DNA of 32,571 nt. Origin: Catajapyx aquilonaris (lineage: Eukaryota). The translations under genes were made by a program, and so were the position numbers. The DNA is taken from NCBI GenBank assembly GCA_000934665.2, contig KZ539127.1, forward strand, positions 1 through 32,571, written 5' to 3'. How positions within the stretch are numbered: position 1 is the stretch's first letter; the number at the start of each line of letters is the position of its first letter. The notes beneath the pieces were generated by a model. That model saw only the letters and a list, made by a program, of their open reading frames with translations, was not told the origin of the DNA and searched no databases. Shown piece by piece: positions 1,233-32,571 of the stretch.

Positions 1233-2042
1233 TCTTTGGTAATTCTAATGCAAAGGTACCATATATATTACTCTGGTGGTGTACTGTACATTACCCCTGG
1301 AGGGTGGTCCCCAGAGAGAGAGAGAGAGAGATGAAATCTGTTCCCGTATGCACATGCTTAATTTTTCCCAACTATTTCTGGTGACTGGATAGATACAAGG
1401 AAATGGTCTGCTGCAGATAAAAAGCAGCAGGAGGTGGCCCCAGGATCAAACCCACATGATCTTAATGGTTTGCAGGAAAGGGGTGTGACTGGGAGAATAC
1501 TGTGACCCTTGACATTTTTTTAAACAAGTACATCCTCCTGGGCATAATGTTATAGAGGTTACAGTAGATGAGTATTGAAGTAGTCACTTGACTGAATTAA
1601 GGGGCAGTGTCCCTTGCTCCATATGCTTCACCCCTCTCACAACATGCTGCAAAAAAAAAGTGGGAAAAAGCCAGTGGGCAACAACTATACTGCCTCTTGC
1701 ATAATTGAACCAGCAGGCAACCGGTAGGGAGAGGAGAGGAGAGAAGCCACAGTTCATGCTCAATTATGCAGGAACCACGAATGCTGGATGAAGCTTGGGG
1801 ATCGATGCTGCAGTAGTCCAGCAAAAAAAGAGGAGGTAACGCTACCTCACACTTGCCATCTTCTGGCAGAACTATCCCTGCCTTTGCAGTGGGTATATAT
1901 ACTTTGCATTGCAAAGTATGGCCCATTAAGCAGTTAAAATGACAGATTAATGGCAGTGAGGAATGCTGAGAGTGTAATTTTTGTGTCTGATTTGTTTGCA
2001 GACTGAGAGATGTGTAATGTAAGTTGAAGAGAAGAACTGAGA

Positions 2043-5000
2043 ATGAAGCACGCTGAGGTGGGTGCTGTTGCTGCTTTGGCCTGTTGTCTGTTGCTGGCGC
2101 CTGGTTGCTTACCAAGGAGGATACGCCCAGAGCAATTGCAGGCCTCGCACCAGTCTTCGTCTTCCAACCGGCGTCCAGCCTCACACTCAAAGGATGCAGG
2201 CAGACCAAACATCATCCTCTTTCTCACTGATGACCAGGATGTTGAGTTGGGTGAGATACATGTTGTAATTACAGTTAAGCTTCACTTCATGATCTGATGA
2301 AAATGTAGTGTGACAAATTATCACTTTTCTTGTGTTCATGTGGTTTAATTTTGGAATTACTGACACTCCTTCCTGTATTTTGTTTTTCTTCTGTTAACCA
2401 TTTCTGGTTTGGACTCTTGAATATGGGTTACTAAACTGAATTCCTTTCTAGCAGTAGGAGGGGCAGCATTTATAACTTGAACCCAGGAATGTTTACATGA
2501 GAGAATGAGGAATCCAAGTAGTACTATGCAATTTGCCCAGTGGCATAAGGGCAAGAATTTCAGTTGGTGAGGATGCAGATTATTTCTTGTCAGGACTAAA
2601 TAGTTTCTTAACTCCCTACAATTGCGATAAGCCTGCAAGAGCCAGTTCTCAGCAAGTAGTAAATATAACCTCCTGATTCCTTGAGCAAGTGTACATGAAA
2701 GGAAGAGTAGTCCTTTTGCAAGTTCAACTCCAAAAATCAGAAATGAATTCTCGATTCCAAATATTATGTAAGTTTTCATTCAATTTCAATATAATAATAC
2801 TTCAAGTCAAGGATGGTTTCGTTGGCTGGTAACAGTGTCAAATTTCCAATCCTCCACATCACTATTTAGAAGAGTATGAAGGTAGGCAGGTACTCATAGG
2901 AAACACAAGACAACCACATCCCTTGGGAAATGGATAATTTCTAGGCACACCTATGATGAGTCAGCCACATTGTTCCTTACGCTGGCTTATCATGTCAAAT
3001 TGTAAGATGGTGATAAAGTAATTAAATGAATGGTAAAGAAATCAGTTAAGCAGAAATGAATTGATAGATTCCCCAATCACAAGGACGACTTCTGGGAGGG
3101 TTTGTTTGCGCAGGAAGTGATGACTCACAGTTGTGCTATTAATTCTGCATCAGACTTCCAGGAAGCTGTTCCTTCGTCAATATTTACACCTCTCTTAGTG
3201 GAAATGCCTTCACTAATTTACGTTTATGATCCCCAGGGTCAATGGCATTCATGCCTAAAACTCGGCGCATCCTTCAGGAAGGAGGAGCTGAGTTCCGTCA
3301 TGCTTATGTAACTACACCCATGTGCTGCCCTTCGCGCAGTTCCCTCTTGACTGGACTCTATGTCCATAACCATCAGGTTTTCACCAACAACGACAACTGC
3401 TCTTCCCCACTCTGGCAGTCTTCCCATGAAACTCGTACATTTGCTTCCTACTTATCCAATGCTGGATATAGAACTGGTGAGTGGTTGGAAATTTAATCAA
3501 GGAGCATATCAAAAGTAACACATGATTGTGTCTTCTTTACAGGCTACTTTGGAAAATACCTTAACAAGTATAATGGGTCGTATATTCCTCCTGGATGGCG
3601 GGAATGGGCTGGTCTCATTATGAACTCCAGGTTTTACAACTATACAGTCAATGTTAATGGGAATCACATTAAGCATGGATTTGACTACCATCGGGTGAGT
3701 GTGAAGGATGTAGTATAGAGAGGCACCTGATACTTGGCTCTTAGTGTGCTGACAGAGAGAAAGATCAGCATGGCAAATGTGCAAAGTTGTCAGAGAAAGG
3801 CACGTGCAGGGGTTTTGTTTATGACTTGTGCATATGGCTATAGATCGGTCGCTATGCAAATGCAACCGAGTGGCCAATTTTATTGGAGGAATTTTATTAC
3901 AAACTGTATTCGTAATAAAATTGGCCACTCGGTTGTGTTCGTATAGCGACCGATCTATAGGTAATAACCTACTGCAGGAAATTTTTATTGGATCAAGAAA
4001 AATTTGTGAGTCAGTAAGTGTACAGTTGGTGCTTGGTGTTATTGTCATATATCATGGTTTCAGGACTATTATCCAGACCTAATAACCAACGATTCTGTGG
4101 CTTTCCTGCGCCGCTCAAAACGCTACTTCGCCAAGAAGCCTGTCTTGCTAGTGCTAAGCTTCCCATCTCCACATGGTCCTGAAGATGCTGCACCTCAGTA
4201 TGCTGAGAAATATTTTAATGTCACCAGTCATCAGTGAGTGTTCCTTATTCTTATGTGGTAGTCACTCCATACTAACGACATCTATTTTCATTTGGCAGCA
4301 CCCCTTCATATGACTTTGCCCCCAATCCAGACAAGCAATGGATATTGCGTGTGACTGATCGTATGGAACCAATACACAGGCAATTTACAGATTTGCTCAT
4401 GACCAAGAGATTGCAGACCTTGCAGAGTGTTGATGAGGCAGTGCACAGGGTTGGTGTGTGGTACATTTTCCCTTGTGAAGATTGTCATACTTGACTTCTT
4501 TTCTAAAGATTTATGAGGAACTGGTGGCTCTTGGAGAACTGAACAACACTTACATATTTTACACTTCTGACCATGGGTACCACTTAGGTCAGTTTGGATT
4601 GGTCAAGGGGAAGGCCATGCCCTTTGAGTTTGACATTAGAGTTCCATTTTATGTGCGTGGACCTGGAGTTACACCTGGAACACAGTGAGTTGGGTTATTT
4701 AATGACTTGGGATTTCAAATTATGTGGGGCTGCAGTTATATTCTTCTTTTTATACCTGTCATAAGGTAAATTTTATTCAATGGAAGGCAGCAAACTTTTT
4801 AAAGTAATGGTTCATTCAGACTAGACATACAATCAGTGAATTCTGAAAGGTGTGAGATGTGACACAAAGAGCTATTGGACTACTTTCGCCAGAAGGCTGG
4901 GAGAACCACTCACCAATCTTCACATGCAGTAGGCCTACGTGACACGTTGAGGTGGATATGAAGTAAATTAAAAAGGTGCACACTTAAAAAAGCGCCTCGT

Positions 5001-8000
5001 TAAAATTCAGGAAAAGTGCACAATTAAGACATGCCATAATTTGAGTGGTGTATGAAAGTACCCACTTTTTAATGCTTTGGGTGCAATAAGTATTTAATTT
5101 TCCTGAAAACAAGCCAGTGGTCTTCCTCAGACCACCAATGTAACCTGGAGAAAAAATTACCTTTGGCACAGGTTGTACATTCATTAAATGAATTTGATTA
5201 AATTTTATATTGTATGCTTTACCTGAAATGGGCTATAAACTTTTGTTGATACAGGTAAAATCTCGTTACAACGAAGACCGCGGGACCAGGCAAATCTTGT
5301 CGTAATGACGGAATTTCGTTAAATCGAGATCAGTTATTTTTATTTCCTAAATGCACCGTGCCTTAGAGGTTACAAACAAATATCACTTCTGATCTCCCGC
5401 ATTGTGAATTAAGAGGGAGATAGGTCAAATAATCATGGAAGGTAACTTCATCCGGCACGCCGCTGCTTTCAGCGACTTGTAGGGGAAAGAAAAGAACGGT
5501 ACATTTATGCCTTTACGGCGCACTCGCTTATCGCTATAGACAGTGCTGGAGCACGTGTGGCAGAGCATTTCACTAGTGCATATTTCGTTATATCGAGTTC
5601 AATACTAGCCCGGGATCCACCTTTCGTATTCGTTGTACTGAAAATTTTGTAGTAACGCATTTCGTAATAACGGGATTACAAATAGGGCCTACGTTGCTCT
5701 TATGGCTGGCCAACCAAAATTTTATTTTTATTGCGTTCTATTGAAATTTCGTTGTATTGGTATTCGCTAAAACGAGATTTTACTGTATAATTTAATCAAT
5801 GGGAGATTCTTGAAAGGTTTTGATATGTAAAGGTCATGTGCCGGGGTCTGTGGTAGCCTGAAGATCATATTCAGTTACCTTCTGAAGGAAGTGCATACCA
5901 CAATATTTGCTTGCAATTATGTGTTGTGTCTTCAATTTGAAAATGAGATGTTTATGCATTGAAATAGTACTTTCATACTTCCACCTGTTGAAACTATTCC
6001 ACCATAATGACAGAGATGTGAAAATAGGATCACCACACCTCAGCACAGGCAAAGTTGGTGCCCTATCACCTTGGGTTTAGTTGAAAAAGTTAACAATAGT
6101 ACACACTCATAACCTAACATGAAATGGCATGCAACAACAATGAAGATTCAACTGATGGAAGGTTTCAGTACATCACAGGTTGAGCTCTGATCATGCCATT
6201 TCTTGTTGTAAGCTACTTTATACTGCTGTTAATGTGACAAGGAATAGTGCATATAATGGGAATGTTTATTGGGAATAGGCTGTATCGATTATGTTTATGA
6301 ATATGCAGGATTCGAGAACTGGCCCTCAATGTAGACCTAGCTCCTACCTTCTTGGACCTTGGCGGAGTGGATTCCCCTCCACACATGGATGGCCGATCTC
6401 TCCTGCCTCTGTTGCATCGCAAGTGAGTTAGGGAAGCACTATGTGCTAAACTGTTTGCTTCCCTTATGATATTATTTCAGTGCATTCATTGACACACATT
6501 GTATTTTATCCCTGCTATTTTGCACTGCTTATTTTTTGGTTAGTTTGTCTGGGGGTGGGGGTTTTATTTTTCTGTCTCGCACCCACAGCTCAGTGAGCGC
6601 TTCTTCCTTCCTGCATCGTCGCAGCTCCTGGGACGAGGAGCGCCAACAGTGGCCTGATACCTTTCTCGTCGAAAGGTAGTCCGACACCACACTCGCTTCT
6701 TTCTCACAACCTCCTCTTTTAAATCTGCCTGACCAAAAACAGCTAGTGAAGGTATGCTGGCCTTTTATTGTGAATCAGTTGCTGCTGGCTAATCTCTGTT
6801 CTGGCCAAGTCTGTTGACAGATAAGACCTTGCACTGTTGCAGACTTTGAAGCGTACTACTGCGCCATGTATTGAATATTACAAGAAAAAATAACACCTTT
6901 GCCTAATTATGATGTGTTCTGTTGCATGATTTTCATGGGTTAATCACTAAAATTGTGCACTTAAATCCTCTGAAATAATGATGTTAACAAATACTGGATT
7001 GTGTGGCACAATGGCAGAACAAATTTAGTATATTTATAATGAAAGAACTGAATCACTTTTTATAAGAAGGGAACAAGTCCAACTTAAAGTTATTGGACTT
7101 GTTCCCTTCTTATAAAAAGTGATTCCTATTACAGTAATCATGATAATCCACAGTGCACCTGATCTGACAAAGTACAAGGGTTGGAATTTTAATGCTGGCA
7201 ATATATCTGTAGGATAACAGTGAATGGAGGAAGTTTACATCGCTTATGACACACTCAGATTGGGTCCTTATCTTACCTGAGAATGAGATTGTCCTACCAT
7301 AACATGTGGGTGCAGTATTGAGAAGCATGTGAGCCTTCATTACCAGATAACCAGACTATTCATGATGTTTTTGACATTGGAACAGCAGTGCTCGATCAAG
7401 ATTGAAATTGCCAGAGGATGCACAGCATGAGAGTTGTAGGGGCTTGCGGTGCATCTGCATTCCTGTATAGAACTGTTGCAATGTGGGCAAAAGCCATCCA
7501 TCAGTGAAGTAAAACTCTGACAGATGAGCCGTGGCCAGGATGTTCCAGTGCAAGTGAGTCGGAACAGATAATGCTGTTACTGCACTGACGGGAGAAAGAT
7601 GTGTGGTGGGCAATTCGTGAGTTAGCCTCTGCAAGTGTATCATGGCACACTCATGCTGTAGCCATTTAAAATTTTATTCAGTACCATTGCTTCAATTTTG
7701 AAAACATAATGAAAGACCAGCTGGTTGCAATAGCTCATGTTCTTGTCAATGGACAGATGTATGTGGTGGTGAACCTATTCTGCCCTGAGGTGAGATGTAG
7801 GGACCTAACCTGTCTGTGCCATAAGCAGTATAAACTTCTTGCATTTTTCTGCTACCCTACAGATGTGTTACCATTATTAAAATTCCAACCCTCGTATTAC
7901 ATAACCACATTTCAAATGAAGGTTTGCCTCAAAGAGAGATGTAAAGGGAAATCATTTCAGGTTTGCACAATGTGATCTCTTTTTTTTTAATGTGCAGGGA

Positions 8001-11000
8001 GTGAAGTAAGTGCATATTTACCAGATTTTTGCTACATGTCAGTGAAAAGAGATAATATCAGTAATTGGTTTTTCCATCGAAGGGTGTAGAGTCCATAGCA
8101 TTGCCAATTGATAAATTCCTTGCTAATTTTACAGCAAGTTTCAATCCAGATTTACACTGTCTTGAGCAGTTTTCAATGCTTGACATTCCTCACTGAGGCA
8201 ACACTTCAGTTATTAATTGATGCAACGCCTACAACTCCAGCTCTCTTTGCTTCAGCTCAGGGCGTCGGGAATCTTGGAAGGGACTGAAGTGGCGAGACTC
8301 GCTTTTGGTGGAGAGGGGTCGACCGTCCCCTCCTCCCTCCTCCCTTCCATCTCATCATCCCTACCAATTGCTGCCTCATCCTCACCCACACTGGAACAAG
8401 TGGGAGCGCCTAGCTACAGAATGCCGCAAGCCCCAGTATCGCTCCCCATGCAGAGGTTTCCAGAAGTGGGAGTGTGTCTGGGAAGATGGAAGGTGGAGGA
8501 TGCATAAGTGCAAATGGGCTGGATCAACCTCCACCTCCACCTCTGCCAACTCACATCGATGTGCATGCCCCTCTGAGGCAACAATCCCACCTCTCCCTCC
8601 AGCCTCTAGGAGTAGGTTGTATGCCAAGTTGGAGCCAAATGAGCGGAAGATGCAGCGTGCCTTTTTGAGAGACCACCTTAATAAGGGTAAGAGAGTTTTA
8701 GCATTCAGTATCAACTTAAGTTCACCTGCCTTAGCTGTCTCTCAAGGTACGTGTTTTTGTTAGAATGTATTACCTAAATAAATCAATAACTAGAGGATAT
8801 CAAGGAACAGAGATAGGTATACCTACACTAGATGAGTTTAGGAGTACTTCTCAACTCTCACTTATGGATATAATCATTATATGGTGCTGTGAAGTGTCTT
8901 CAATAATAATAAACGTATGCACCCACGGATGTTAGGGTCCCGGGTTCGATCCCAGCCCGGGGTTCCCCCCTTCATCTCGTGCAGAGTTCGGGGTCATCTC
9001 TGGCTGGTGGTATCTCCGTTAAGACAAACCACCTGGGGGAGTTCACAAAATGACCGCATCAGTGACATTGCACTGCACCTTGCACATCCCCTCCTGTCAT
9101 TCTGCCCATGGGCCCGGGCGTTTCATAAACTATGGTTCCAATGTACTATTAACAGTAAAAGTAATGTCGCCACTGTTTGTGTGTGTGTTTATGTGTTGGT
9201 AAACTTGGGCGCAGCCAGGTTATGGATATGTTTATATGGCGATGTTCCAGAATCCACAAGACTCTGCTCACCGGTCGCGGCCGCGGCCACTGTTCCACGG
9301 TCACGTGGCCGAACTGTCCGGGTCGCGGTTTGAGAGTGCCAATACTTATTCGTGCAACTTATTTTTAGTTTATATAGAGTCTGCGTATTTATAAAACAGA
9401 ACCCACTCATTTATCAGCGATTAAATCCACACTGCTATAAAATAGTACTCCATTAGCTCTGAACATGATTTCACTTGTTCGAAAACATTGTTCTTGGTTC
9501 TTGCCGTGCAAATTGGCTGATTCCGTTGTGTTATTGCGACTTGCCACACAAAACCAAGACATGTCATGCCAGCACCTGGTGGGTTATAACCCAAGAAGGC
9601 TGGTCGGTGAAGAAGACTATACTAATCACTCTAAGAAATGTCTGGATTAAATATCCATGACAAAAGTGACGTCACTTTTGTCATGGATATTATTTTAACC
9701 TGGACATTTCTTAGAGTGTAATCTGATAGGGGAACCTATCCTAACCTGACTGTGACGTAATGGGTTCGCTCCGTTTGCCTGAAGCTACAGTCAATGGAAA
9801 TCTGCCTAATGCACCTCTGGAACCTTCCACTCTTCCTGTTTCCAAGGGAATGCCCTCATGCAGCAATAGGAGTCATCCGCGGTTTTAAAGTTTGGTTTCA
9901 TTTTTGTGACATGGATCTTCTGGGTGCTTCAGGCAGTTGAGCACGCAGAATGTTCTTTTTGGGAGGCTGGCAGGCGAGGAAGCCCGCCGCAGGCGAAAAA
10001 TTTTGTGTATTCAAGGTCACACAAGCAGAAAGAAATATCATCTTCAGGGTTATTTTGCATTTCTGGGAAAAAGTCCCTAAGATGCACTACAGTTTTGACT
10101 ACCAGTCCAATAATATACTGTTTGCAGATATTTTCGTAATGAACGCACATCTTGTCATTGTCCCGGACAATACACAAGAGAAGGAGGGTTAGCATGAAAG
10201 ATTTCTGATTTACGACCACCACTTCCAATTCAACCCTACCTCTTTGGTGGTAGTTAATTACAGTAATCGCTAAATTAACACATCTCGTTTACGGGCAAAT
10301 TTTCTAGAGAGATAGAATCAGTTTGCACAAATAACTAGTTATCCTTCCTCGCGACCCAAAGTTGGGGTCGCGACCGCAAAACGGAAAAGATCACACAGAC
10401 AGCGGCGGATTTCCCATTGGGCACAGTAGGCACTGGCCTAGGGGCGGCCGCCCTAGTTGCAATAAATAATATTTATCCAATATAATAATAGGAAATTAAG
10501 GCGAGATCACAAAGAAAATCGCATTTTTGAGAGCTTGATTTACCACAACAGGCAGAAAAGGTCATTGCTGATGGGTGGCCGCCCTCTGGTCGGCCATAAC
10601 TTTCAATATAATATTTTAAAAATAAAATAACATTAAATTGAAGGAGATAACACAATAAAAAAATTTGCATTTTTAGGTGTCAGGCCGGGGGGGGGGGGGG
10701 GGGGGGNNNATCTCAAGTGCCTAAGGGCGGCCGGGGGGGGTAAATCCGGAGCTGCACACAGAACAGTGCAATGTGCATGTGACAAATAGGAGGAGTGGAA
10801 GATTCCAGGGGTGCTTTTATCTGAACAAGAAAATGGATACTGATGGAAATATTTTGACTTCAAATTCAAACTCAGCGCATACTAATACATATTAATAAAA
10901 GGTGAAAATTCCTTATTTAACAAAACCATTGAAGGGCAACACGGTGGCGGAGTGGTTAGTGTCACAGCCTTTCACCTCTAAGGTCCCGAGTTCGATCCCC

Positions 11001-13891
11001 GGGTCGGAAGGAGGATACTTATGTTGATAGAGTTTTGATGGGTTCTCTCCATGTTCACGCGGATTTTCTCGGGGTTCTCTCGTTTCCTCCCGCAATAAAA
11101 ATCCATCACAGCGCAGAGGCAATGATTAAAGTCGGTATTTAAAAGATGGTCCCCTAAGAGGCCCAATGAGGCCTATCATGGGGTATCCATTATTAGGTAT
11201 TATTATTATATTTAACAAAACCATTGTTGACCATATTAGTCACATTGAGCAATGTGCAGTGTACTTTCCCCAAAATAACTTATGGCAGTTTCAAAAAAAT
11301 GGAGGGTGATGGACACTTTCTGACTTCATATTCGGAATCAGCACATATGAATGCATTAGAAACAGCTAAAATGGTTCATGTGCCAAAAACCTTGTTGACT
11401 AGTGTAATGTAGATGTAAAACATAAGAAAAAGGTATTGCTAGAGTATTAATTTTCTTGTGCTGCAGATATTCGTGAATACAAACCCCGTTTCCTGAAGAC
11501 ACCACGTGCTAGGAGGAGTAGTGATGATGGGGGTAGGCAGAGGAGGGAGCAGGAAGATGCAGACCAAGAGATTGAGGAAGTAGAGCTAATAATGGAGGAG
11601 CTGTCTGAGGAGATAAGAGGATTGCAGGTGAGATGTTATGAGTATATATGGCACTGTTACAGTTATAACTTAAAATTTTTACACCATAGAACCTTCACAA
11701 CGACTCTTCCGAGTTGGACATGGGATCAACCCCTGATACTCCCAGAACTTCTCCCCTGACCCCTAACCGGCCATTTCCCTTTACAACTGCCATTCCTTGG
11801 TCTTCCCCTGCACCAGTGGAAAGACACATGACCACTGCTTCTGCAGTAGATGAGGAATTGGCAGAATCCCGCTGTTCCCTTGGGCCTGGAGGACAAGTCT
11901 TCTGCTCACACAGTGTCTATTCTGACCTGCGCTCATGGAGGTTCAGTAAGGACCACATAGACAAGCAGATCAGGCGACTCAAGACTACACTGGATGAGCT
12001 ACGGGTGAGAGTCATGATAGTTCATCAGAAGTTAGGATCATGTGGGGTAACACTTAAGATTGGAATTATTTGCATGTTCTTCCGCACAATAGCCCCAACT
12101 GCTGATGGGATTACTTACAACGGAACATGATATTTCTTTGGGTGGCTTGATTGTTAAAAGTGCATGACAATAACCGAAGCGGTGGTGGCGGAGGGGATAT
12201 GGTATCCGACTGCTAATCGGGAGGTCCTGGGTTCGAATCTCGGGGCCGGCAACTCTAACCGTGGTTTTCTGTGGTTTCCCACGGTTCCTCCAGGAGAATT
12301 CCGGAGTTGTTTTCTAAACTAATAGGCCACAGCCGCCTCCTTCCTTTCCTATCATATCCCAAAAAGCGCAGTAAAAACTAAATGAAAAAGTTCCAGTCAA
12401 AACAAAAATATCCCCCCTAAAGAGCCGCAGGCTGATAACGGGGTATGAATTATTATTATTATTATTATTAAAAAGTGCATGACAATATGTACATATTAAT
12501 AAGCCAACTGCACTATCATCTCATGATTCAAAAAATGGTTCCAATATTGTTCAGTAAAATCTTGATAGAAAACTACTTTTGGGAAGAGGGAGGCAACCAC
12601 CACAACCCCTTCTTAAGATACTACATTATGTTGATGTCTTTTCCTTCCAAACTCTTAACACCCCAATCAATATTCAATGTCGCAGCAGTCGTCCTGTCTT
12701 TAGAGCATCAGAATTACTGTAATACAAGGTTGACATTTATGCAGGAGATACGTCGTCACCTGAAAGAAAAGCGGCCTGATGGATTGGATGACTTGGATGA
12801 CTTGCTGGATTTGGAGGATGATTACTCTGAGGAAGCAGTTGACAGTGAGGAAGAGGAGGAAGAAGGCACTCTCCCACTTATACCTCTTGGCACATCTGCT
12901 CCTGATTGGCATCGACCAGAAAGGAATATATCAAAAGGCCGCATTGATGTACTGATCTTGGAGCCTAGTACAGCTACTCCCAATGTGTGGGGCAGTAGAA
13001 ACAGGAAAAAAGTGAATAATAAGGGGAAGGGGAAGTGCGTATGTGACCCAAGGGCAAGAGAAAAGATGCAAAGAGCAGCTGAAAAGGCAGCAAGGAAAGC
13101 AGAGAGGGAACGACTCAAGGCGGAAAGGCTTAGGCGGAAGGAGAGGAAGATGCGCAAGAAGGGAATGCTGGGTGGTGTTGGGTGGGTGGCTGCAAGTTTG
13201 CTTGGTGGGGAGGGGTGTAACTCAGAGAAGATGAACTGCTTTGTACACGACAACGATCACTGGAGGACCCCTCCTTTGTGGACACATGGACCTTTTTGCT
13301 TTTGCATGAATGCAAACAACAATACATACTGGTGCCTTCGAACTGTCAACGCTACCCACAATTTCCTCTACTGCGAGTTTATCACTGGGTTTGTGCTCTT
13401 CTTTGACATGAATGTAGGTGAGTTTCATGCCATGTTCATTTTAAGGAGTATTTTTTTGTGTAAGTCCCAAGTAATTCCACTGGAGGCTGTGACTGTGAGG
13501 TTGCATGCGATGTTCTAAAAATTTAATTTCCAAATGTCTCTTTGAACTTCCCTTCACTAGTAATTACCTTTTGCAGGTAACGGAAAGTGCCTGAGATAAT
13601 TTTCTGTTTCCACACAGACCCGTACCAGTTGCGAAATGTGGCTCACACACTCAAGGAGGAGGAGCGCCAATTGATGCATGAGCGCCTGGAGCGTTTACGC
13701 ACATGTCGAGGTGCACGTGAATGTGCACTGGCATCACTGCCCGAGTCAGACAACCGCCTGAGAGGATTGCCTGATCCACAGGATGTCATCTCGGCTCAGA
13801 AGGCGGACAACCAAGTGCAGGATCAGGACAGGTGTGATTTTCCTTCCACATCTAATTATTTTACTCGTGCATTGTCACATTCCTGCTTGCC

Positions 13892-13924
<33 letters not shown>

Positions 13925-15710
13925 GGGTATAGTGCCATACCTCATCTGAGGTTTTGGCATGGACCTTTGTTTCCAAGATGTATCATCAGTCCAAAAAGAA
14001 TTGTCCCTCGCACCGAGTGGGCAGCCACGCGTCAGGATGAAAGGAACCAGTTAATCCTGACTCTGGAGAACTCTGCACGACATAAAAGGGGGGGATGCCC
14101 GAGCTTGGTATCGAACACGGGACCCTTCCATCCCTGGGCGTGTGCGTTACCGCAGCTCATCTTCGCCTTCCCTCCTGCTTGCCATAAGGAATTTGTGCCC
14201 AAAAGTGGAAATAATCTTTTGAGTACCAAGGAATCCAAGCAATGAACTAAGGAATTTGCTCCTTAGTCGAGTGTTGAAAGTCCACTTCCCTCTTGTGTGA
14301 CCTTGAGTCTGATTTGGGAAGTTACAATTTTGTAAGCCTGCTTGCCCTCTCTTTAACTCTCATCTAACTACAAAAATGTGAAGGATAGTGTTAGTGCTGT
14401 CACCCCATTGCCACACAGATACACCAACACAAATTGCATCTCAGAGCACACCCCACCTGCTATGCTTGTGTGGCCTTCTTGATGAGCTTGCCCAAAGTGC
14501 AATGCTATACCCTCCATGTGGAGGTTTCTCCTAACTGTGCAGTTATTGAAAAATTAATAATTTTTAAAATTATAAATAGTATGATCAAGTTACTTGGGTA
14601 AGAAATGCTGATCAGGCTTAGATGAAGCGTACTCTGCGAAAATTCAGAGATCAAGGTCAATACTTTTTTGTGGGATTTTCTTACATGAAGGAAAAAAATA
14701 CTAACAGAAAAATTGCAGGCCTATTTTGTCATCAACGAAAAAATTTCCGTTATGGACATTTGCCTACTCTTAAATTCAAGGATTCAGTTGTCACAATCGA
14801 GTCAAACACTTCTTTGGGTACATCTGGTAGACGGAGATCAGGAAATTGAGCCTTTTTGTACATGTGGCCTACTCTTTACCCTTCGGCTGGGAAATGAGAA
14901 AATTTTCCGTATTCGCCAACCTGAACTTCGACTTAGGGAGACTGAAAATGCATTGATATCTCATCGTAAGGCCCTGCCTGCACTTCGAGTTATAGAAATT
15001 CCAGCTAGGGAAGTTTATTTCCTATTATTTTACATTGTGACCAACCAAATAATAATTTTCTTCGACTTATAGAGAACTTCGACTTAGGGAAGTTTGACTT
15101 ATAGAAGTTTTACTGTATCTATGTTTTACTGTATCTATTTTACTGAAGGAACCATTGACAGTACATATCTACGTAATATTCAGTTGGGTGTAAGAGTTTA
15201 TCAGGAGTGCTTGTAATGAAACGCATGCGTGAGGGAAAGACTTAATAGTATATTTAGGTTTTAATGATGGTTTTGTTGCTACATCTGATTGTAACCATGA
15301 GAAAAACTACAGTCTGTTAAACCAAAGAATGATATGGCGTCATGTTCAGCCCGCCTCCACCCGGCTCTTTCCTTTTATTATGTCCCCGAATCGCTCTGCA
15401 ATCATACTACTCTGCATGTTCAGAAAACATGGCTGGTGATCCATCATATCATTCTTTGGTTTAATGGACTGCACTTCTCTTGTTTAATACTCGTAGTATT
15501 TATGTCAGATTTAGGAATAATACCTGTGACATCATTACAATAATTTCTCTGAAGTACAAAACCTTTGGTAATGGGTTGGAGGATGGCTACAACAAAAGTG
15601 TTGTTCATTTCAGCATCTGGCCTGAAGACCACCGGGATCATCAACATCACTGGAGACGAGGATGGAAGAAGCACAAAAGGCGGCCTGGTAGCCATAGAGG
15701 ACAGCTCTGA
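2043..15710 (+). CDS. Sulf1: Extracellular sulfatase Sulf1 (heparan sulfate 6-O-endosulfatase), 14 coding exons, about 1062 aa
   Basis: Exons: 2043-2250, 3237-3476, 3543-3694, 4064-4233, 4299-4449, 4509-4684, 6309-6422, 6589-6675, 8256-8686, 11467-11627, 11690-12004, 12745-13417, 13618-13831, 15614-15710. All are GT-AG and phase-consistent (3189 nt). Motifs: signal peptide, [18 protein letters not shown], formylglycine motif [46 protein letters not shown], a hydrophilic domain with furin-type RARR/RQRR, and the C-terminal [28 protein letters not shown]...DPYQL. The last exon is the least certain (it rests on phase and acceptor only). Confidence 0.95.
3838..3960. repeat. Foldback inverted repeat / MITE in Sulf1 intron 3
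   Basis: 47-nt arms at 3838-3884 and 3914-3960 with 4 mismatches, all transitions. Confidence 0.85.
5252..5785. mobile_element. Tc1/mariner (pogo/Tigger-like) MITE
   Basis: TIRs CAGGTAAAATCTCGTTACAACGAA and TTCGCTAAAACGAGATTTTACTG, TA on both flanks (5250-51, 5786-87), and repeated subterminal TTTCGTT motifs. Confidence 0.8.
7050..7125. repeat. Perfect 33-bp inverted repeat with a 10-nt spacer (Sulf1 intron 8)
   Basis: GAATCACTTTTTATAAGAAGGGAACAAGTCCAA (7050-7082) and its exact reverse complement (7093-7125). Confidence 0.92.
8917..9060 (+). mobile_element. tRNA-derived SINE fragment related to the element at 13896-14172
   Basis: B box GTTCGATCC at 8944-8952, followed by CCCCCCTTCATCTCGTGCAGAGTTC, which resembles CCCCCCCTTTTATGTCGTGCAGAGTTC in the minus-strand SINE. 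Boundaries are approximate. Confidence 0.65.
9627..9718. mobile_element. Short foldback MITE with CACT termini and a loopless 42-bp palindromic core
   Basis: TIR CACTCTAAGAAATGTC / GACATTTCTTAGAGTG; perfect palindrome at 9650-9691. Confidence 0.75.
10400..10754. mobile_element. hAT-type MITE with a perfect 8-bp TSD
   Basis: TSD CACACAGA at 10392-10399 and 10755-10762; TIRs CAGCGGCGGATTT / AAATCCGGAGCTG; internal G-run containing Ns. Confidence 0.85.
10932..11208 (+). mobile_element. Full-length tRNA-derived SINE with a V-domain-like centre
   Basis: A box TGGCGGAGTGG, B box GTTCGATCC, (TAT)n tail, and an 18-bp TSD TATTTAACAAAACCATTG at 10914-10931 and 11209-11226. Confidence 0.9.
12173..12470 (+). 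mobile_element. Full-length tRNA-derived SINE
   Basis: A box TGGCGGAGGGG, B box GTTCGAATC, (TTA)n tail, and a 17-bp TSD AAAAGTGCATGACAATA at 12156-12172 and 12471-12487. Confidence 0.9.
13896..14172 (-). mobile_element. Full-length tRNA-derived SINE, antisense to Sulf1
   Basis: B box GTTCGATAC (minus strand, 14116-14108), a (TTA)n tail seen as (TAA)n near 13893-13924, and a 15-bp TSD TCCTGCTTGCCATAA at 13881-13895 and 14173-14187. Confidence 0.88.
14920..15117. mobile_element. Right end of a pogo-like MITE (left end not found)
   Basis: Repeated TTCGACTTA/TTCGAGTTA subterminal motifs ending in GTTTTACTG+TA, the same terminal style as 5252-5785. Confidence 0.5.
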
Positions 15711-15919
15711 CTGCCATGAAATGGTGTATAATTTGGTCATCAAGTGGAAATTCCAGGCTGTGGACTGGTTTAGTTACCTTGGTTACTGTGATTAGCTACC
15801 AAGATATTATTAAGCAGTACAGTACTTGCTCTTACATTAGTGGAAACTGGAACGTGAAATTGGCAGCTGATGTGAGAAGTTACTCACAACCATGTTCTTA
15901 CAGTAAGGTCCAGGTTAGC

Positions 15920-16314
15920 CCCCTACAACTCCTACAATATGGTAGCGAACTTAGAGTCTCCGCCACCCCAGATTTGACGCTGGCAGCGTTCCACAGTCAT
16001 CTATCGCCCAAGTCGGATTCAGGTGGCTGGCCGACTTTGTCTGCGAATGCACTCCACACCCAGCTGCAGAGGAAAGGTCAGTTTGGGTTGGTTCAGAAGG
16101 TGTCTGCCTGAATCTGACTTGGGCGATAGATGACTGTGGAGCACCGGCAGCGCCAAATCCGGGGTGGTGGAGAGACTCGAAGTTTGCTATGGTGCTGGTG
16201 TAGTCTCCACACTTTCCGAGCAACGGTGGGGAGTGTGGAGACTACACCAGCATCGAAGCGAGACAAGCCAAGGTCACAGGGGTCTCCATAAGGCTCGGGT
16301 AGGAGTGTCAGGGG
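15920..16314. other. Multi-branched inverted-repeat (structured RNA) domain in the predicted Sulf1 3' UTR
   Basis: About 85-bp stem 15942-16026/16104-16190, hairpin 16190-16255, and a closing stem 15920-15935/16299-16314. Confidence 0.85.
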
Positions 16315-16553
16315 TCTGCTCACAACCAACTTGACCATTTTTGAGTAATTATTTTTAGCATTTGCTATTGTACTGCTAGCACTCTCCCTAAAAGAAATCC
16401 TCTGATTTTCATGTGCTTTGACAGATTCCTCAGAAGGGTGGCTTATTTAGGGATAACCACTGTAGTTGGGCATTACTTAGTATTATGCAAGGTGACTAAA
16501 CTAAACCATTGCCCATGAATGGTTGGTAAAAATGTGTTAACTTAATGGTGTGA

Positions 16554-16772
16554 TTTATTTGTACAAAGCATAATACTTCACCATCCCATGTACACGCCTT
16601 AGATCACTAAATTTTTTCTACCTTGCAATGTCTCTTGCACACATCACCTCGCATTGTAGTTGCCATTTATACATAACATTGGGATGAAATGTAACTTGCA
16701 GGGAATAAAAATCATAGCTGTTAGTTAGATAAATGCAAGCTCATTGTTGAAAAGCACGTGTAATCCTTTAAT
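16554..16772 (-). terminator. Candidate PEF1 polyadenylation signals (ATTAAA 16772-16767; AATAAA 16559-16554)
   Basis: Both hexamers lie on the minus strand downstream of the TAG at 16848. Confidence 0.4.
16704..16709 (+). terminator. Probable Sulf1 polyadenylation signal AATAAA
   Basis: First AATAAA I see on the + strand after the predicted stop at 15710. Confidence 0.5.
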
Positions 16773-16847: not shown

Positions 16848-19338
16848 CTATGTGGTACAGCTGAATACAGTCTGCAAAAAGTCTTCATAGGAGATGTTAA
16901 TGATTCCTTGCATCTGCTGGTCTCGTGCACGAAATGCATCTAGAATAGATAGAATATTTGACACTTTTAAAATCTCAGCAATACTATGCTATCAAGTAAT
17001 TTTCCAGTTCTTCCAAGCAATGGAAGGGACTTGGAAGTATTAATACCTCAATTCAGGTGGAACTAAAGACTAGTTCACAAATGAAATGTAAGAAGATAAG
17101 GGAACAACACTAGATATGTTACTCTGGGCAATTTGTGCCATCTCATAAAATATGTGAAGGGGATACCATAATACCCACTAAAACTAAATTTCCCCACCTT
17201 AAATATCACCTTTCATCACACAATGATTATTATCATCATGCATATATCTCTAATTACACCTAAAGTGCAGAAATATTTTGATTTCAGTTAAGTTTGTGGT
17301 TATTACTTACCCGTGCATCGCTGGATAGTGATGACAGCAACAATGAACTGGTCGACAGTCATCATGTTCTGTGTCTTGCAATCAAACTTGGCAACAAGCT
17401 GGTCCACAAACTGGGGTGAGAAGCGGTAGCCCATTTGCTGTAAAGCTGCAGATGGGGGACGGATTACTATATAAACTCTAATTATGTGTGACTCCTGGCA
17501 GATGTGATAAATTGTGAATGAAGGTAACTAACTCGATCTTAAATCATCAGAGGTTCAGAGCTTAAAAATCTATTACAGCAGGACAAATAATGCAGACTGA
17601 ATTATTTTTTTAAATCCCCAAGTAAAAAAAATATATAGGAGAAAATAGTCTGGACTTTGTGGCCATATTCACACCTTGTGCCAGTTCACCCTTGTCGATA
17701 GTTCCTGAGTTGTTGCGATCAAAGGAGCGGAATGTCTGCAGCCACTCATTGACATACTTGTACAAATGCTGGAAGCCATGTATATCAATCGTGCCTGTCT
17801 TTTGTGGGTCAAACATTCCTGAAAAGAAAAATATGAGTTACAAACACCTGATTGAGAGAAATGTTAGATGAAAAATTCACTTAATGCTTGATTGAAGTAG
17901 AATGTAACGAGACTGCCATCAGAGGCTGACAGCCTTCCTTTTGCCATCCTGCCTCTGATGCAAGGTGTCCCCAAGTTATTATGACAATATTATTACCTAG
18001 CATGAGCTTGCAACATTCGTAACTGAAGCGAGCTCCATTGCTGTTGACAAGGGCAGCCTGAAGCTCCTGACCAGATATGCGCCCAGATCTGTCAGCATCC
18101 ACAGCAGCGAACCACTGTTGAATCTCAGGATTGATACCTGGGGTGCCACCATAAGCCTGCAGGAAAAGAAAGAAAGAAAAAAAAACACTCCCATTTAGAT
18201 ATATTCAAGACAGTTCTGTTGGATTGCACCACTCATGGTAGATGATTTGGTACATGGTATGTGTCACATGTCTCAGTCAAGCAGTGGTTAAAATGTAAGG
18301 TAATTTTGGCTTTCTGAAGGGCATGAAAGTTATTTAAACTTTGTGAATGAAGGCCCATTCACATGTGGCCACATAATAATCAGCAGCAATCAGTGCCTCC
18401 ATTGGCCAGTCACATGTCTCTTGCATCCTGTGACAGGGTGATCTCTGTGCTGATTGGGGGACAGCATGTACGTATTGTCAGCAGCTCTGACTGCCCAAGT
18501 GAAAACCCTGTATCTTGCCTATTTGTCATTTCCAGATATTCGTGGTTTAAATTTTTTGTGTCCATTATTGTATATGGAAGTGCATGGCTTTAATTGGTCA
18601 AAACTTTGCATGGGTTGCTCCTACAGTAAGTTGCCGCCTCTGTACCAAAAGGTCTGGCTTGCAAAGAGAAATGCCATGGTACATTTATCTCCATTTACAT
18701 GATTTCCGAAGATACGGGGATTCCACTTGGGCCGTCAGAGCTGCCTTGAGTCATCCCCACACATCCATGAATGTACAGTACATTGAAGATTGTACCTTAC
18801 TGTCCGTCATCCTCTGAATATTCACTGAAATTTCACCTCTCATGTGCCAACATGCACGAGCAAAACTTAATGCAGCGTCCAAGATGTGATCCAAGACCAG
18901 GACATATCCTAGCAACGTCAAGCAGACTGTTATGTTGTTGGTTGCTGTTTGGAGTGGTTTTCCCCAGGAGTCAGTTGACAAGTGACCATACTTGCGCATA
19001 GATGTGTCAAAATAGAGTTCCCTTGAGGTTATTTACCAAGAACCCCTGTGTTCGGTTATTCTCTTGTGGTATTTAGTGGCGTTTGATCATCGGCAGTAGG
19101 CAAACAGTGTAACCTAAATGTTGTGGAAGTTATCTGCAAATTCTTGAACGTTCAAAGTGAACGTCCAAAGTGTGATGCTGCGGGGAATGTAATGCGCTAG
19201 CACGTGCGGCAAGGGCACTCCTCTGACCTGCTGGCCGTATCCGTACTGTCCCGGCGGCTGCTGGCCAGGAGCGGGGCCTCCGTAGCCTTGCTGCGGAGGT
19301 GCGCCGGGTTGCTGCTGACCGTAGTTGTAGTACGCCAT
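16848..19338 (-). CDS. PEF1: Peflin-like penta-EF-hand Ca2+-binding protein, 5 exons, 213 aa
   Basis: Exons (minus strand): 19338-19228, 18156-17997, 17818-17675, 17445-17311, 16939-16848. Gly/Pro/Gln/Tyr-rich N-terminus, EF loops DADRSGRISGQE and DRNNSGTIDKGE, then ALQQMGYRFSPQF and DAFRARDQQMQGIINISYEDF, ending in TAG. The pattern fits peflin better than ALG-2/PDCD6 or sorcin. Confidence 0.88.
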
Positions 19339-19735
19339 GACAGCAATTGCTATACACTTCTTTCTTTTTTTCTTTTCTTGTTTTTTTAGGTCGTACGGCC
19401 GGCTGCTTCCAACATTCCAGTGACGTAGAGGCAGCGTCCGATTTCCTCAATTTCAAACAAAGCATTTTTAAAATTCATTTAAGCTACGGTTGAACCATTC
19501 ATTTTTAAACCGTCTAAAATGCCTCGTATGACATCAATGGATGGGTGCTGCAGTTTATAATCCGTATTAGCTGTGAGAGGCAACGGCTGGAAATGCAACT
19601 AATCGAGTGAGTGACGTCACTCACCAGTGTAAGATGGCGGCCCATCCCTAGTAAGCTTTGTGTGTGATTATTTGTTCTCCCTGCTTTTGGAATTCGATTG
19701 GGAGAGTCGCATTCCCTTCGTGGGGATCCGTCAGG
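19339..19735. promoter_or_regulatory. Bidirectional promoter region between PEF1 and SMNDC1
   Basis: Divergent ATGs are about 400 bp apart. A CRE (TGACGTCA, 19612-19619) sits inside a perfect 18-bp palindrome (19607-19624). There is a YY1-type AAGATGGCGGC at 19631-19641 and a CRE-like TGACGTA at 19421. Confidence 0.7.
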
Positions 19736-21174
19736 ATGGCAGCCATGGCAGAGGATCTGCAGGCCAACCTGAAGACATACAAACTTCAGATGCAGCAGGT
19801 ATAAGGGGACTGTGCACCACCATTGCAAGGTGCAGGGGATATCTGGAGGATCAGTTCGTTTGTACCACACGGGGTGGATGCTTGGGTGTTGGCCATGTTG
19901 CGGATTTATATTGTGAAGATGCGAGACTGTGCCTTTGCCATAACGTTTATTGCTTGCTTTTTGTCTTCCCAAGGTGGAAGCTGCCCTAACTACAGACCCA
20001 TTGAATGAGGAGCTGCAAAAGTTGAAGACAGATTTGCTGGAGGTCATTGCTCTGACCAAGGATCTCCTACGAGTGCAGTGTGGTGATACCGCAGGAGAAC
20101 CAAGTGGTGAGGCTGACCAGCCAGAGGACGTAGCCAACTCTCTAGCTTTTGTATTCCTGTAGATATGAAATAACTCCAGAATTTTATTTATTAGTTACTG
20201 AATCCCTGATAAAATTGTCTTACATAGTGCCAAAGAAGTGGCAATACCATGATGCAGCTAGTGGTGTGTGCCTACCACAAAAAAATAACATATTTAACGC
20301 TGCACAGGCAGCCAGGGTGTATTCGAGATTTGTGGCATTAAACTGAACTTTGCAACTGGATGCATATGTGGTTGGGAGTAAATTCAGGAGAAAAAGCTAC
20401 ATAGTTTTGATCAGGTCCTAACTATTGAGACCACAGTATTACAAGAATAGGTCAGGGCACTCGCCACCATCTTACGTGCCGTTAACCCTTCCCACATTGG
20501 TCCTAGTATATCTGCAATGGAATCGCGCTCTGGAATACTACTCACTGAAGCATAATGACTAGCAACCCTGATGGTACAACTCTGCATTAGCACCTAGTTA
20601 CTGATAGCGATACACCAAGATGCAGAGTTGCACAGTCAGGGTTGCTAGTCGTTATGCTTCAGCGAGTAGGATTCTAGTGGGAATACCACTAGCGCCGGGG
20701 TGGGAAGAGATAATAGCAGAACTTTTTCTATTGGCCTGGGATAGAAGTGACCGGGAGCTGAATGAGACAAAGGATCCCGTCGACAAACATTTTTTCTCTG
20801 CCTGCCATTATTTTAGTGGAAGTTGTTCATAATGATGTCATGGAAAAGTGTAATTCTAGTTAGTTTTAAATTGCCAGTATTGTGAAAATTATCAATTTTG
20901 TGCTATTTTCTACTTCAAAATCCTGACATGATGCTAGGAATATTAGATGATGTTAATTTTAATTTATTAAGTAATTGTGACTGATTTTTATTAGAAATGG
21001 CAATTGTTCATTAAATTGGTCTGAGTGCTGATATTAATGTCCAAAATTATATCCTCCCATTGCATTACCGTCACTCTAATCTATGTAAACGGTGTTGCAA
21101 ACTCATTTATTTCATTAAATGTTTGCTGTAGGGAAGAGTATGCAGCTCTAAAAATTGAGCATCATCTGCCATTG

Positions 21175-27404: not shown

Positions 27405-27715
27405 CAGTGACGTAGCCAGGATTCCGGTTCGGGGGGGGGGGGGGNNNNNNNNNNNNNNNNNNNNNNNNNNNNNNNNNNNNNNNNNNNNNNNNNNNNNNNN
27501 NNNNNNNNNNNNNNNNNNNNNNNNNNNNNNNNNNNNNNNNNNNNNNNNNNNNNNNNNNNNNNNNNNNNNNNNNNNNNNNNNNNNNNNNNNNNNNNNNNNN
27601 NNNNNNNNNNNNNNNNNNNNNNNNNNNNNNNNNNNNNNNNNNNNNNNNNNTCGAAAAATTTCGGGGGGGGGGGCTCGGGCCCCCTGCCCCCCCCCCCCCC
27701 CTGGCTACGTCCCTG
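27405..27715. mobile_element. hAT-like MITE spanning the assembly gap (Ns at 27445-27650)
   Basis: TIRs CAGTGACGTAGCCAGG / CCTGGCTACGTCCCTG; ACTGTAAT at 27390-27397 and 27716-27723; G/C homopolymers at the gap edges. Confidence 0.75.
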
Positions 27716-28274
27716 ACTGTAATGATATATCGTGACTTTAAGACATCATAACTTTTGCAAATATGGGGTTCCGCACGAAATATTTCATTTTTGGGTATAA
27801 TTAATTATACTGTATTGTCCTGTATTAGCATGATCAATTTCATCAAGATCCGTCATTATCACCCCGTGACCTTCCCTTGTAAGATAGTATTTAGTTTGTT
27901 CCAAGGGTAGGTAGGAGGGGATGTGCAAAGTGCAAGTGCAATGTCTCTAATCGTAATTTTGTGAACTGTAGAGTCTGTAGGAAATTGCCACCCGAAGTGA
28001 AGCCAGAGATGGCCCAACTCTGCACGGATAAAGGTGGTACACCTCCCCAGGGGAGTGTGAGTTGCCTCACAAGAAATAATTTTATCCATATTTTGTGTCA
28101 GTTACACAAAATTCTAGAACGATCGAGTATTAGTAACTAGGCTAAATACTTATCCTGCCTAAACCTAAAGTTTAGGCCAGAGGTGTGGGTCGTAAGATTT
28201 TCATCATACTCGAGTAGGCCTATACGTATCAAGATACGTAGTATAGTCCTCGAGATTCGAAAGTCAGTTGGTAT

Positions 28275-28380
28275 GTACTATATCGCTCAAAAAGATAGGG
28301 ACGATTGGCATTTGATTCAAGTGCAAGTTGCACTTGAGTCAAATGCAAAATCGTCTCTATCTTTTTGGGCGATATAGTAC
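28275..28380. repeat. Near-perfect 106-bp palindrome (foldback MITE)
   Basis: Arms at 28275-28326 and 28328-28380 with a 1-nt centre, about 4 mismatches and 1 indel. Confidence 0.85.
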
Positions 28381-29699
28381 GTATAGATAATACATCCGTA
28401 ATGTCAAAAGTCACGAAGGTTCGTGACTTATGTAGAGAAGTAACTTACACTAACTGTAAGATTAGGCTTACTTGCATATTTCTCAGACTAATAACACATG
28501 CTCGCTCCGTATAATTTAAAGCAGCCAATGCTTATCATCTGAGGTACTCGACACGGAGAGACCTTGTGGAGTGCGTAGTGAGGAGGGCATGCATATACTG
28601 ACCTTGGATGAAGTTGTGCAATGCCCATAAAGGCACGATTAGCGAACGCTGAGCCCATTTTATAGAATTTATTGAAATTTGCGACGCATCTTGTTATATT
28701 GATTCACAAACACAACAGGTGACATCATATTTTGCTCGCATTAATTCTATTGTCATGCTTCAAGGTAAAGGTATATAATAACTTCGGCGAGATGCAAGAC
28801 ATGCGCCTGCCCAGGAAATGGAACTGGTTTTCCATCTTATACCCGGCACTAGTTGTTTTCCATATTAATTATGATCCATCTGGTCTTTAGAAAGCAAAGT
28901 TCACCTGATAGACTCTTGTAGTTTATGAATAGCAGCAGACGTGGTAACAGTTATTTCCTGAACACTGTAGTTTTTCTAATCTGAAAGTCAACATTGTGCG
29001 TCCGGCTGCACAGTCACACATTTACTGAGAAACGGTGTTCACAAGTATTTAGGGGAACATCAGGTGACGCAGATGGGTCAGATTTCATCAGTCACATTAG
29101 CCACCCAGTAAGGGTCTTCGAACCTCTTGTTGATGTGATTTTTTTTTTTTCAAATAAGATGGTGTGTGATAGTTTTAGAATTCCCGGCAGATTGATGATG
29201 CATGTCTTGGAAAGATTGCACTGGCATTGATTGTGAAACTTATTGCGTAGTCGAGAGCAAGACTTCCTATCAATATCCTTCCAATGTTATCGGAACCAGC
29301 TAAGACTGACTTACAAATTGTAATTTGGAGAAATACTAATTGCCCAGAGATTCTGAGGCCAGATAATTCGCTGATTTCTTTACGGATCATCGTGCTTTTA
29401 TCCTCATATTGCATGATAGGTATACGGAAGTCGGAAGGTAGTTGATCAAGGAGGTACCAACACAAACTGACGAGATGCTTCATCGCTCAGTACACGTAAC
29501 TCAGTTACGTGTGAACTGAGCTATGAAGAATCCCGTCAGTTACTCGTCGTGACTTTGTACCAATCCCAGCTGGCCTCTTACTCGCGTAAAAAGATGACCA
29601 ATGAGGCGAGTACTCGAAGCTATTGCCGCCTAGATCATTTTGCGAATCTGTGTAGTTCTTTCCTGCATGCAATTGAGGCGAGTTTAAGTTGACGTGAAA

Positions 29700-32483: not shown

Positions 32484-32571
32484 GTACGTGTACAATAATA
32501 ATAATTGTGGATTGACTGAGAATAGGCAAATCTGAATCGGTCAAGAAAACGAGATTTTAGATAAATTAATG

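Follow-up and report, generated by a model that had tools for sequence, protein, structure and literature searches.

A candidate foldback transposon relic between convergent Sulf1 and sorcin-like genes in Catajapyx aquilonaris

The interval between the convergent Sulf1 and sorcin-like genes on contig KZ539127.1 of Catajapyx aquilonaris was found to contain a GC-rich, self-folding block of 426 bp (positions 15893-16318 of the 32,571-nt stretch of DNA that was analyzed, hereafter the window), bracketed by the two copies of a short direct repeat. With a probability that is somewhat better than even, this block is what decay has left of a non-autonomous transposon of the foldback or MITE type, with the very stable RNA fold predicted for the region being a by-product. 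An earlier note on the same DNA had instead read the fold as a possible cis-regulatory RNA or small-RNA source in the Sulf1 3′ UTR.

The GC content of 15893-16318 is 55.4%, compared with 39.1% and 35.0% in the 1-kb flanks—in agreement with the GC-richer island that had been described previously—and the step in composition coincides with the repeat-bounded block. The direct repeat, CTCACAACCA, occupies 15883-15892 on the left and 16319-16328 on the right, and is the longest common substring (10 nt) of the 80-nt flanks 15846-15925 and 16300-16379. This repeat was picked out post hoc; among 5000 shuffles, a common substring of at least 10 nt had a probability of 0.004, and 3 of 404 pairs of control windows shared one of this length. 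The direct repeat and the GC-richer 426-bp block together read as the footprint of an insertion, and the repeat is a candidate target-site duplication (TSD). On the right, the inverted repeat abuts the repeat copy that starts at 16319; on the left, 8-18 extra bases separate the repeat copy from the end of the inverted repeat, so that the TSD reading needs a later small rearrangement and departs from a clean target-site duplication. The claim in the earlier note that a terminal TSD is lacking is nevertheless not supported, given the 10-nt direct repeat flanking the block, and neither is the contrast that had been drawn on this ground between the GC-rich 426-bp block and the MITEs of the window.

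The plus strand of 15900-16340 was predicted to fold as RNA with a minimum free energy of -252.9 kcal/mol, against a mean of -156.73 kcal/mol (sd 6.14) for 100 dinucleotide-preserving shuffles, none of which was as stable (z -15.66, 0/100); this comparison had been proposed in the earlier note as a check of the fold, and its outcome upholds the claim. Furthermore, the nested hairpins were recovered in the fold at the coordinates that had been claimed for them, including the long stem 15942-16026/16104-16190, its core, the second hairpin, and the outer stem. Hairpin 1 (15942-16190, plus strand) consists of arms 15942-16026 and 16104-16190, forming an imperfect duplex of ~85 bp, and an apical region at 16027-16103. 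In the helix list of the predicted fold, this stem contains an uninterrupted 39-bp helix (15988-16026/16104-16142), inside which lies a perfect 25-bp core (15990-16014/16116-16140), and hairpin 1 folded alone has an energy of -158.7 kcal/mol (z -15.4, 0/200 shuffles). Hairpin 2 (16191-16254, plus strand) has a 28-bp stem (16191-16218/16227-16254) closed by an 8-nt loop, contains G-U pairs and zero mismatches on the plus strand, and folds alone with -56.7 kcal/mol (z -10.5, 0/200 shuffles). Both hairpins are enclosed by an outer stem, with the inverted repeats thus making up most of the block. According to the helix list and arm alignment, the left half of the outer stem (15907-15935, plus strand) pairs with the right half (16299-16336, plus strand), the latter with extra bases that include the right repeat copy; the core of this stem is 15920-15935/16299-16314, and the pairing extends to 15907/16336. 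An inverted-repeat search placed arms of 67 nt with 88% complementarity at 15957-16023/16107-16173 and arms of 28 nt with 89% complementarity at 16186-16213/16232-16259. The idea that hairpin 2 is a diverged copy of hairpin 1 was rejected, as the best local score was reached by 20% of shuffles (P 0.2).

The minus strand of the same region folds nearly as stably as the plus strand, with a minimum free energy of -237.2 kcal/mol and a z of -16.05, the plus-strand fold being better by ~16 kcal/mol. Since both strands fold almost equally, the structure has the character of a DNA palindrome and not of a strand-specific RNA fold. The RNA-element reading of the earlier note is thus upheld with respect to the fold itself, which lies far beyond chance, and is weakened with respect to its RNA nature. 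If the block is a transposon relic, it also illustrates that a striking RNA fold with a z near -16 can arise from a DNA palindrome alone.

In the alignment of the arms of hairpin 1, 72 positions match, 16 are mismatched, and there is a single 2-nt indel. Transitions account for 13 of the 16 mismatches, giving 9 G-U and 4 A-C oppositions on the plus strand, and the remark in the earlier note that most arm differences are of these two kinds was therefore accurate. In view of these 16 mismatches and the indel, an assembly artefact in the form of a fold-back chimera was rejected. When hairpins 1 and 2 are taken together, the transitions on the plus strand comprise 14 G-U versus 4 A-C (two-sided binomial P 0.031), or 12 versus 4 under a stricter count (P 0.077). 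In addition, an even spread of the 17 differences would be expected to leave a perfect run shorter than the 25 bp seen (P 0.029). The G-U bias and the long perfect run could result from selection on a plus-strand RNA duplex; both patterns would also be produced by gene conversion between the arms or by a mutation bias linked to transcription. A plus-strand excess of G-U (17 versus 12) was likewise counted over nine further palindromes of the window, with no difference from the block in this respect (Fisher P 0.22). Strand assignment from the G-U bias, while suggestive, was consequently set aside, the bias not being distinct from that of the other palindromes. The transition-rich arm differences, including the A-C oppositions, fit repeat decay as well as they fit selection for pairing.

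No transposase or other coding capacity was recognized in the block by Pfam and protein searches. None of the four reading frames through the block (0/4) matched Pfam, and the 96-aa frame at 15954-16241 on the minus strand had 0 matches both in a word-indexed protein search limited to 52-168 aa and among 1.84 billion representatives. In an exact look-up, none of the block's own six frames was present in the protein collection, and the protein nulls therefore say nothing firm on copy number. No Rfam family was found at gathering thresholds in the whole window; at E<=10, the region 15700-16600 gave only livK (22.3 bits versus a cut-off of 65), taken as a chance match, and no miRNA family. ARAGORN reported no tRNA or tmRNA. 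At the nucleotide level, blastn (word size 7) and nhmmer turned up no further copy in the rest of the 32.5-kb window, with the best off-self match, in the apical loop region, being 18 nt long with one mismatch. Tandem sub-repeats are absent from inside the block, the only arrays lying outside it at 15060-15145, and no target-like complementarity to the arms was detected elsewhere in the window, nor any target homology at the protein level. Prokaryotic origin or contamination was rejected as well: a 25-mer and a 22-mer from the stems had, as expected, 0 exact matches in bacterial and archaeal genomes. The stem sequences were absent from the searchable literature, supplements aside, and no hairpin in a Sulf1 3′ UTR was among the literature matches listed, with the same restriction.

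The window is rich in other compact palindromes, for example those at 3838-3960, 7050-7125, 9627-9718, 15305-15476, 18481-18744, 20530-20677, and 28272-28383, which suggests that palindromic insertions are common in this genome; the block at 15893-16318 is the longest and most GC-rich among them. The other compact inverted repeats, including that at 7173-7896, have arms of 25-58 nt that are 83-100% complementary, probably represent insertions of MITE-like elements into intronic and intergenic DNA, and show no relation in sequence to 15893-16318. Apart from repeats, all three N runs of the window (341, 10707-10709, and 27445-27650, with 1, 3, and 206 bases, respectively) come immediately after 13 or more consecutive G, which looks like a sequencing or assembly artefact at poly-G tracts. 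Cytochrome P450 exons are found at the right end of the window (31215-32535, plus strand; Pfam p450, best E 3.4e-15).

With respect to the neighboring genes, exons of Sulf1, an extracellular sulfatase, were recognized on the plus strand from ~2028 to 13895, with the Pfam Sulfatase domain on the exon at 3230-3493. The Sulf1 frame at 12472-13515 matches 337 Sulf proteins; all organism-named matches listed are from arthropods, and the best of those listed (millipede, spider, locust, and shrimps) show ~50-53% identity. The last recognizable Sulf1 reading frame is that at 13581-13895 (plus strand), which carries a conserved C-terminal motif and ends in the stop codon at 13893-13895. In pairwise BLASTP, this frame was aligned to the Sulf-1 proteins of millipede (E 8e-07) and shrimp (E 3e-11); a protein search restricted to longer proteins gave no match for it. 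After the conserved motif, the relatives have 80-120 further residues versus 56 in the frame at 13581-13895, and on account of this shorter tail a further downstream Sulf1 exon is possible. An (AAT)n microsatellite at 13897-13924 directly follows the Sulf1 stop codon and forms an inverted pair with a complementary (ATT)n tract ~1.4 kb away, at 12449-12470, upstream of the large Sulf1 exon.

The gene on the other side of the block encodes a sorcin-like penta-EF-hand protein on the minus strand and spans 16848-19446. Its last coding exon (16848-16940), with the stop codon at 16848-16850, was identified by translation and by an alignment (E 2e-05) that covers residues 135-166 of the 167 of sorcin, at its C-terminus; EF-hand domains were detected by Pfam on upstream minus-strand exons (17613-18204), and the N-terminal exon (19114-19446) is rich in Gly, Pro, Gln, and Tyr. 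Sulf1 and the sorcin-like gene are thus convergent, with 2952 bp between their stop codons; within this tract, 1997 nt separate the block from the stop of Sulf1 and 529 nt from that of the sorcin-like gene.

The first plus-strand AATAAA past the Sulf1 stop was found at 16704-16709, confirming that the block lies between the Sulf1 stop and this signal, as the earlier note had stated. In the 2808 nt of 13896-16703, AATAAA or ATTAAA occurs 0 times on the plus strand versus 6 times on the minus strand; shuffles predict 2.8 plus-strand hexamers, and the fraction of shuffles with none is 0.06, a marginal value. This strand asymmetry is weak evidence that the whole 13896-16703 tract would be transcribed with Sulf1. 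On the minus strand, the first AATAAA downstream of the sorcin-like stop is at 16554-16559, 235 nt to the right of the block, with the result that both this signal and an ATTAAA at 16767 precede the block in the direction of transcription; further minus-strand signals are found at 15483, 15460, 15374, 15260, and 15014. The plus-strand signal at 16704 lies beyond the minus-strand signal at 16554, and if both are used, the transcripts are predicted to overlap, minimally at ~16530-16730, with the hairpin outside this overlap. Judging from these hexamers, the block is probably located inside a long Sulf1 3′ UTR that overlaps the tail of the sorcin-like transcript, the reason for the Sulf1 placement being the plus strand's freedom from AATAAA and ATTAAA before 16704. 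The 3′ UTR assignment of the earlier note accordingly stands as plausible by position; the convergent sorcin-like gene had been left unweighed, and the transcription of the block with Sulf1, like any effect on that gene, is an inference.

The sequence of events leading to a foldback relic would be as follows. A foldback DNA insertion would have landed between the stop codons of the convergent Sulf1 and sorcin-like genes, with a transposase supplied in trans recognizing the terminal inverted repeats and inserting the element. The insertion would have duplicated a target of ~10 bp (CTCACAACCA), after which the two arms would have drifted apart, chiefly via transitions, leaving the RNA fold as a by-product of the DNA palindrome. 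From the structure, GC step, and direct repeat that were observed, we infer transposition and membership of a transposon family of this kind. If carried in a long Sulf1 3′ UTR, the element would form an ~85-bp imperfect duplex and a perfect 28-bp duplex, which arthropod Dicer-2 could cut or ADAR could edit, and the Sulf1 mRNA might thereby be lowered or marked in cis.

It is unlikely that the block was instead generated locally, as an inverted duplication of unique sequence through replication template switching or hairpin-capped repair, in which case it would be neither mobile nor functional. Such an origin agrees with the finding of no other copy within the window, with the left end of the inverted repeat not being flush with the flanking repeat, and with arms that have diverged like a neutral duplicate; however, the block is foreign in composition (55% versus 35-39% GC), with no source sequence nearby, and one local event would hardly yield three separate inverted repeats nested in this way, given that the two hairpins are not related to each other. 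In addition, the flanking 10-nt direct repeat marks an insertion, and not a fold-back duplication. A microRNA precursor, with hairpin 2 as a canonical pre-miRNA or hairpin 1 as a "giant" miRNA hairpin, is highly improbable: the 28-bp stem and 8-nt loop of hairpin 2 would suit such a precursor, but a flawless 28-bp stem in a repeat-flanked block of foreign composition fits a palindromic repeat better, and no miRNA family was matched in 15700-16600 at E<=10. Although very long miRNA hairpins have been reported in invertebrates, the giant hairpins are described, in excerpts of the same source (PMC12553114), as lengthened conserved miRNAs, and none is recognizable here.

The foldback relic is also to be weighed against readings in which the duplex matters as RNA. 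One of these, regarded as unlikely, holds that the plus-strand hairpin, irrespective of how it arose, is kept by selection in the Sulf1 3′ UTR, where it would tune the Sulf1 mRNA as a Dicer-2 source of hpRNA or endo-siRNA, a substrate of ADAR, or a Staufen-type dsRBP site. The duplexes, with a 39-bp helix in the 85-bp stem and a perfect 28-bp stem, are long enough for dsRNA-binding enzymes, and the length of the perfect core exceeds expectation (P 0.029); still, the stem is interrupted by 4 A-C mismatches and 3 transversions. The excess of G-U over A-C on the plus strand (14 versus 4, P 0.031) and the ~16 kcal/mol advantage of the plus-strand fold point in the direction of selection, but this G-U bias is not distinguishable from that in the other palindromes of the window (Fisher P 0.22). 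The zero count of plus-strand hexamers in 13896-16703 is consistent with plus-strand read-through, though the gap in poly(A) signals is marginal (0.06 of shuffles with none), and hpRNAs can arise within existing transcription units, including a 3′ UTR, according to excerpts of PMC10317233; against this, no target-like complementarity was found elsewhere in the window. It is likewise improbable, at about one chance in ten in our judgment, that the block belongs to an extended minus-strand 3′ UTR of the sorcin-like gene or to a 3′ overlap zone yielding cis-NAT siRNAs, with the hairpin being incidental. The convergence of the two genes (stops at 13893-13895 on the plus strand and 16848-16850 on the minus strand) speaks for this arrangement, as does the transcript overlap to be expected if the signals at 16704 (plus) and 16554 (minus) are both used; with the distal minus-strand signals from 15483 to 15014, a longer 3′ UTR of the sorcin-like gene would even include the block, the fold of the minus strand is strong as well, and convergent 3′ UTR overlaps are given as the dominant class of cis-NAT siRNA loci in Drosophila in the excerpted part of PMC4079977. 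However, the minus-strand signals at 16767 and 16554 precede the block, so that the default 3′ end of the sorcin-like transcript would be expected to fall short of it, and the minus-strand fold is the weaker of the two.

A bolder extension, to which we attach a similarly low probability, combines the transposon origin with a function: a domesticated foldback insertion would act as a dsRNA switch in the long Sulf1 3′ UTR, its plus-strand duplex having kept the 25-bp core and the G-U bias of the arms. On being diced by Dicer-2 or edited by ADAR, this switch would set the level of Sulf1, and there may be an interplay with antisense transcripts that read through from the sorcin-like gene opposite. 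If such a switch exists, it would affect an enzyme with a part in shaping the gradients of Wnt, Hh, and FGF. More broadly, if transcribed in the Sulf1 mRNA, the insertion could alter how much is made of a morphogen-modulating heparan-sulfate 6-O-endosulfatase; as a transposon relic, in contrast, the block would be an everyday matter of annotation, to be masked like any repeat.

In human 3′ UTRs, inverted Alu pairs form dsRNA, and a palindromic repeat in the non-coding tail of a gene, as proposed here, would form a long intramolecular duplex in the manner of other transposon-derived UTR dsRNAs. Most long cellular dsRNAs are located in introns and 3′ UTRs, and are often derived from transposons, according to excerpts of PMC6239182, and editing-enriched regions have been profiled in C. 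elegans (PMC4408787, in excerpt). Unlike in those systems, the host here is arthropod-like and neither a nematode nor a mammal, and the duplex is a potential one, read from sequence. The block resembles the hpRNA loci of Drosophila in that a long inverted repeat would give a Dicer-2-sized duplex; the arms of hpRNAs are homologous to a target gene or transposon, whereas the block is without target homology in the window or at the protein level. In excerpts of PMC10317233, hpRNA loci are characterized by Dicer-2-dependent 21-nt siRNAs and by a primary transcript that rises in dcr-2 mutants. The likeness to 3′ cis-NAT loci, as these are presented in excerpts of PMC4079977, lies in the convergent genes, whose predicted 3′ ends cross if the hexamers are taken as a guide; unlike in such loci, the hairpin lies outside the minimal predicted overlap at ~16530-16730. 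If in the Sulf1 mRNA, the block would be a potential Dicer-2 or ADAR substrate. Such substrates include, in other animals, UTR palindromes that derive from transposons (PMC6239182, in excerpt) and, in Drosophila, transcripts of inverted repeats as well as convergent 3′ overlaps (PMC4079977 and PMC10317233, each in excerpt).

The closest resemblance under the preferred reading, that of a decayed foldback or MITE-type relic, is to foldback and Mutator-superfamily non-autonomous DNA transposons (Drosophila FB and Tetris) and to MITEs, which, like the block, are non-coding, consist nearly entirely of inverted repeat, and snap back. Differences from these foldback and MITE families are the single copy in the window and the left end of the inverted repeat, which is not flush; differences from foldback elements in particular are the want of internal tandem sub-repeats in the block and its size, 426 bp being much smaller than the classical elements. 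A further resemblance is that the block sits among other small palindromic elements. Moreover, Tetris is flanked by a duplication of 8-10 bp, on which basis it was assigned to the Mutator superfamily (PMC4079207, in excerpt), and the candidate 10-nt duplication of the block falls in this range.
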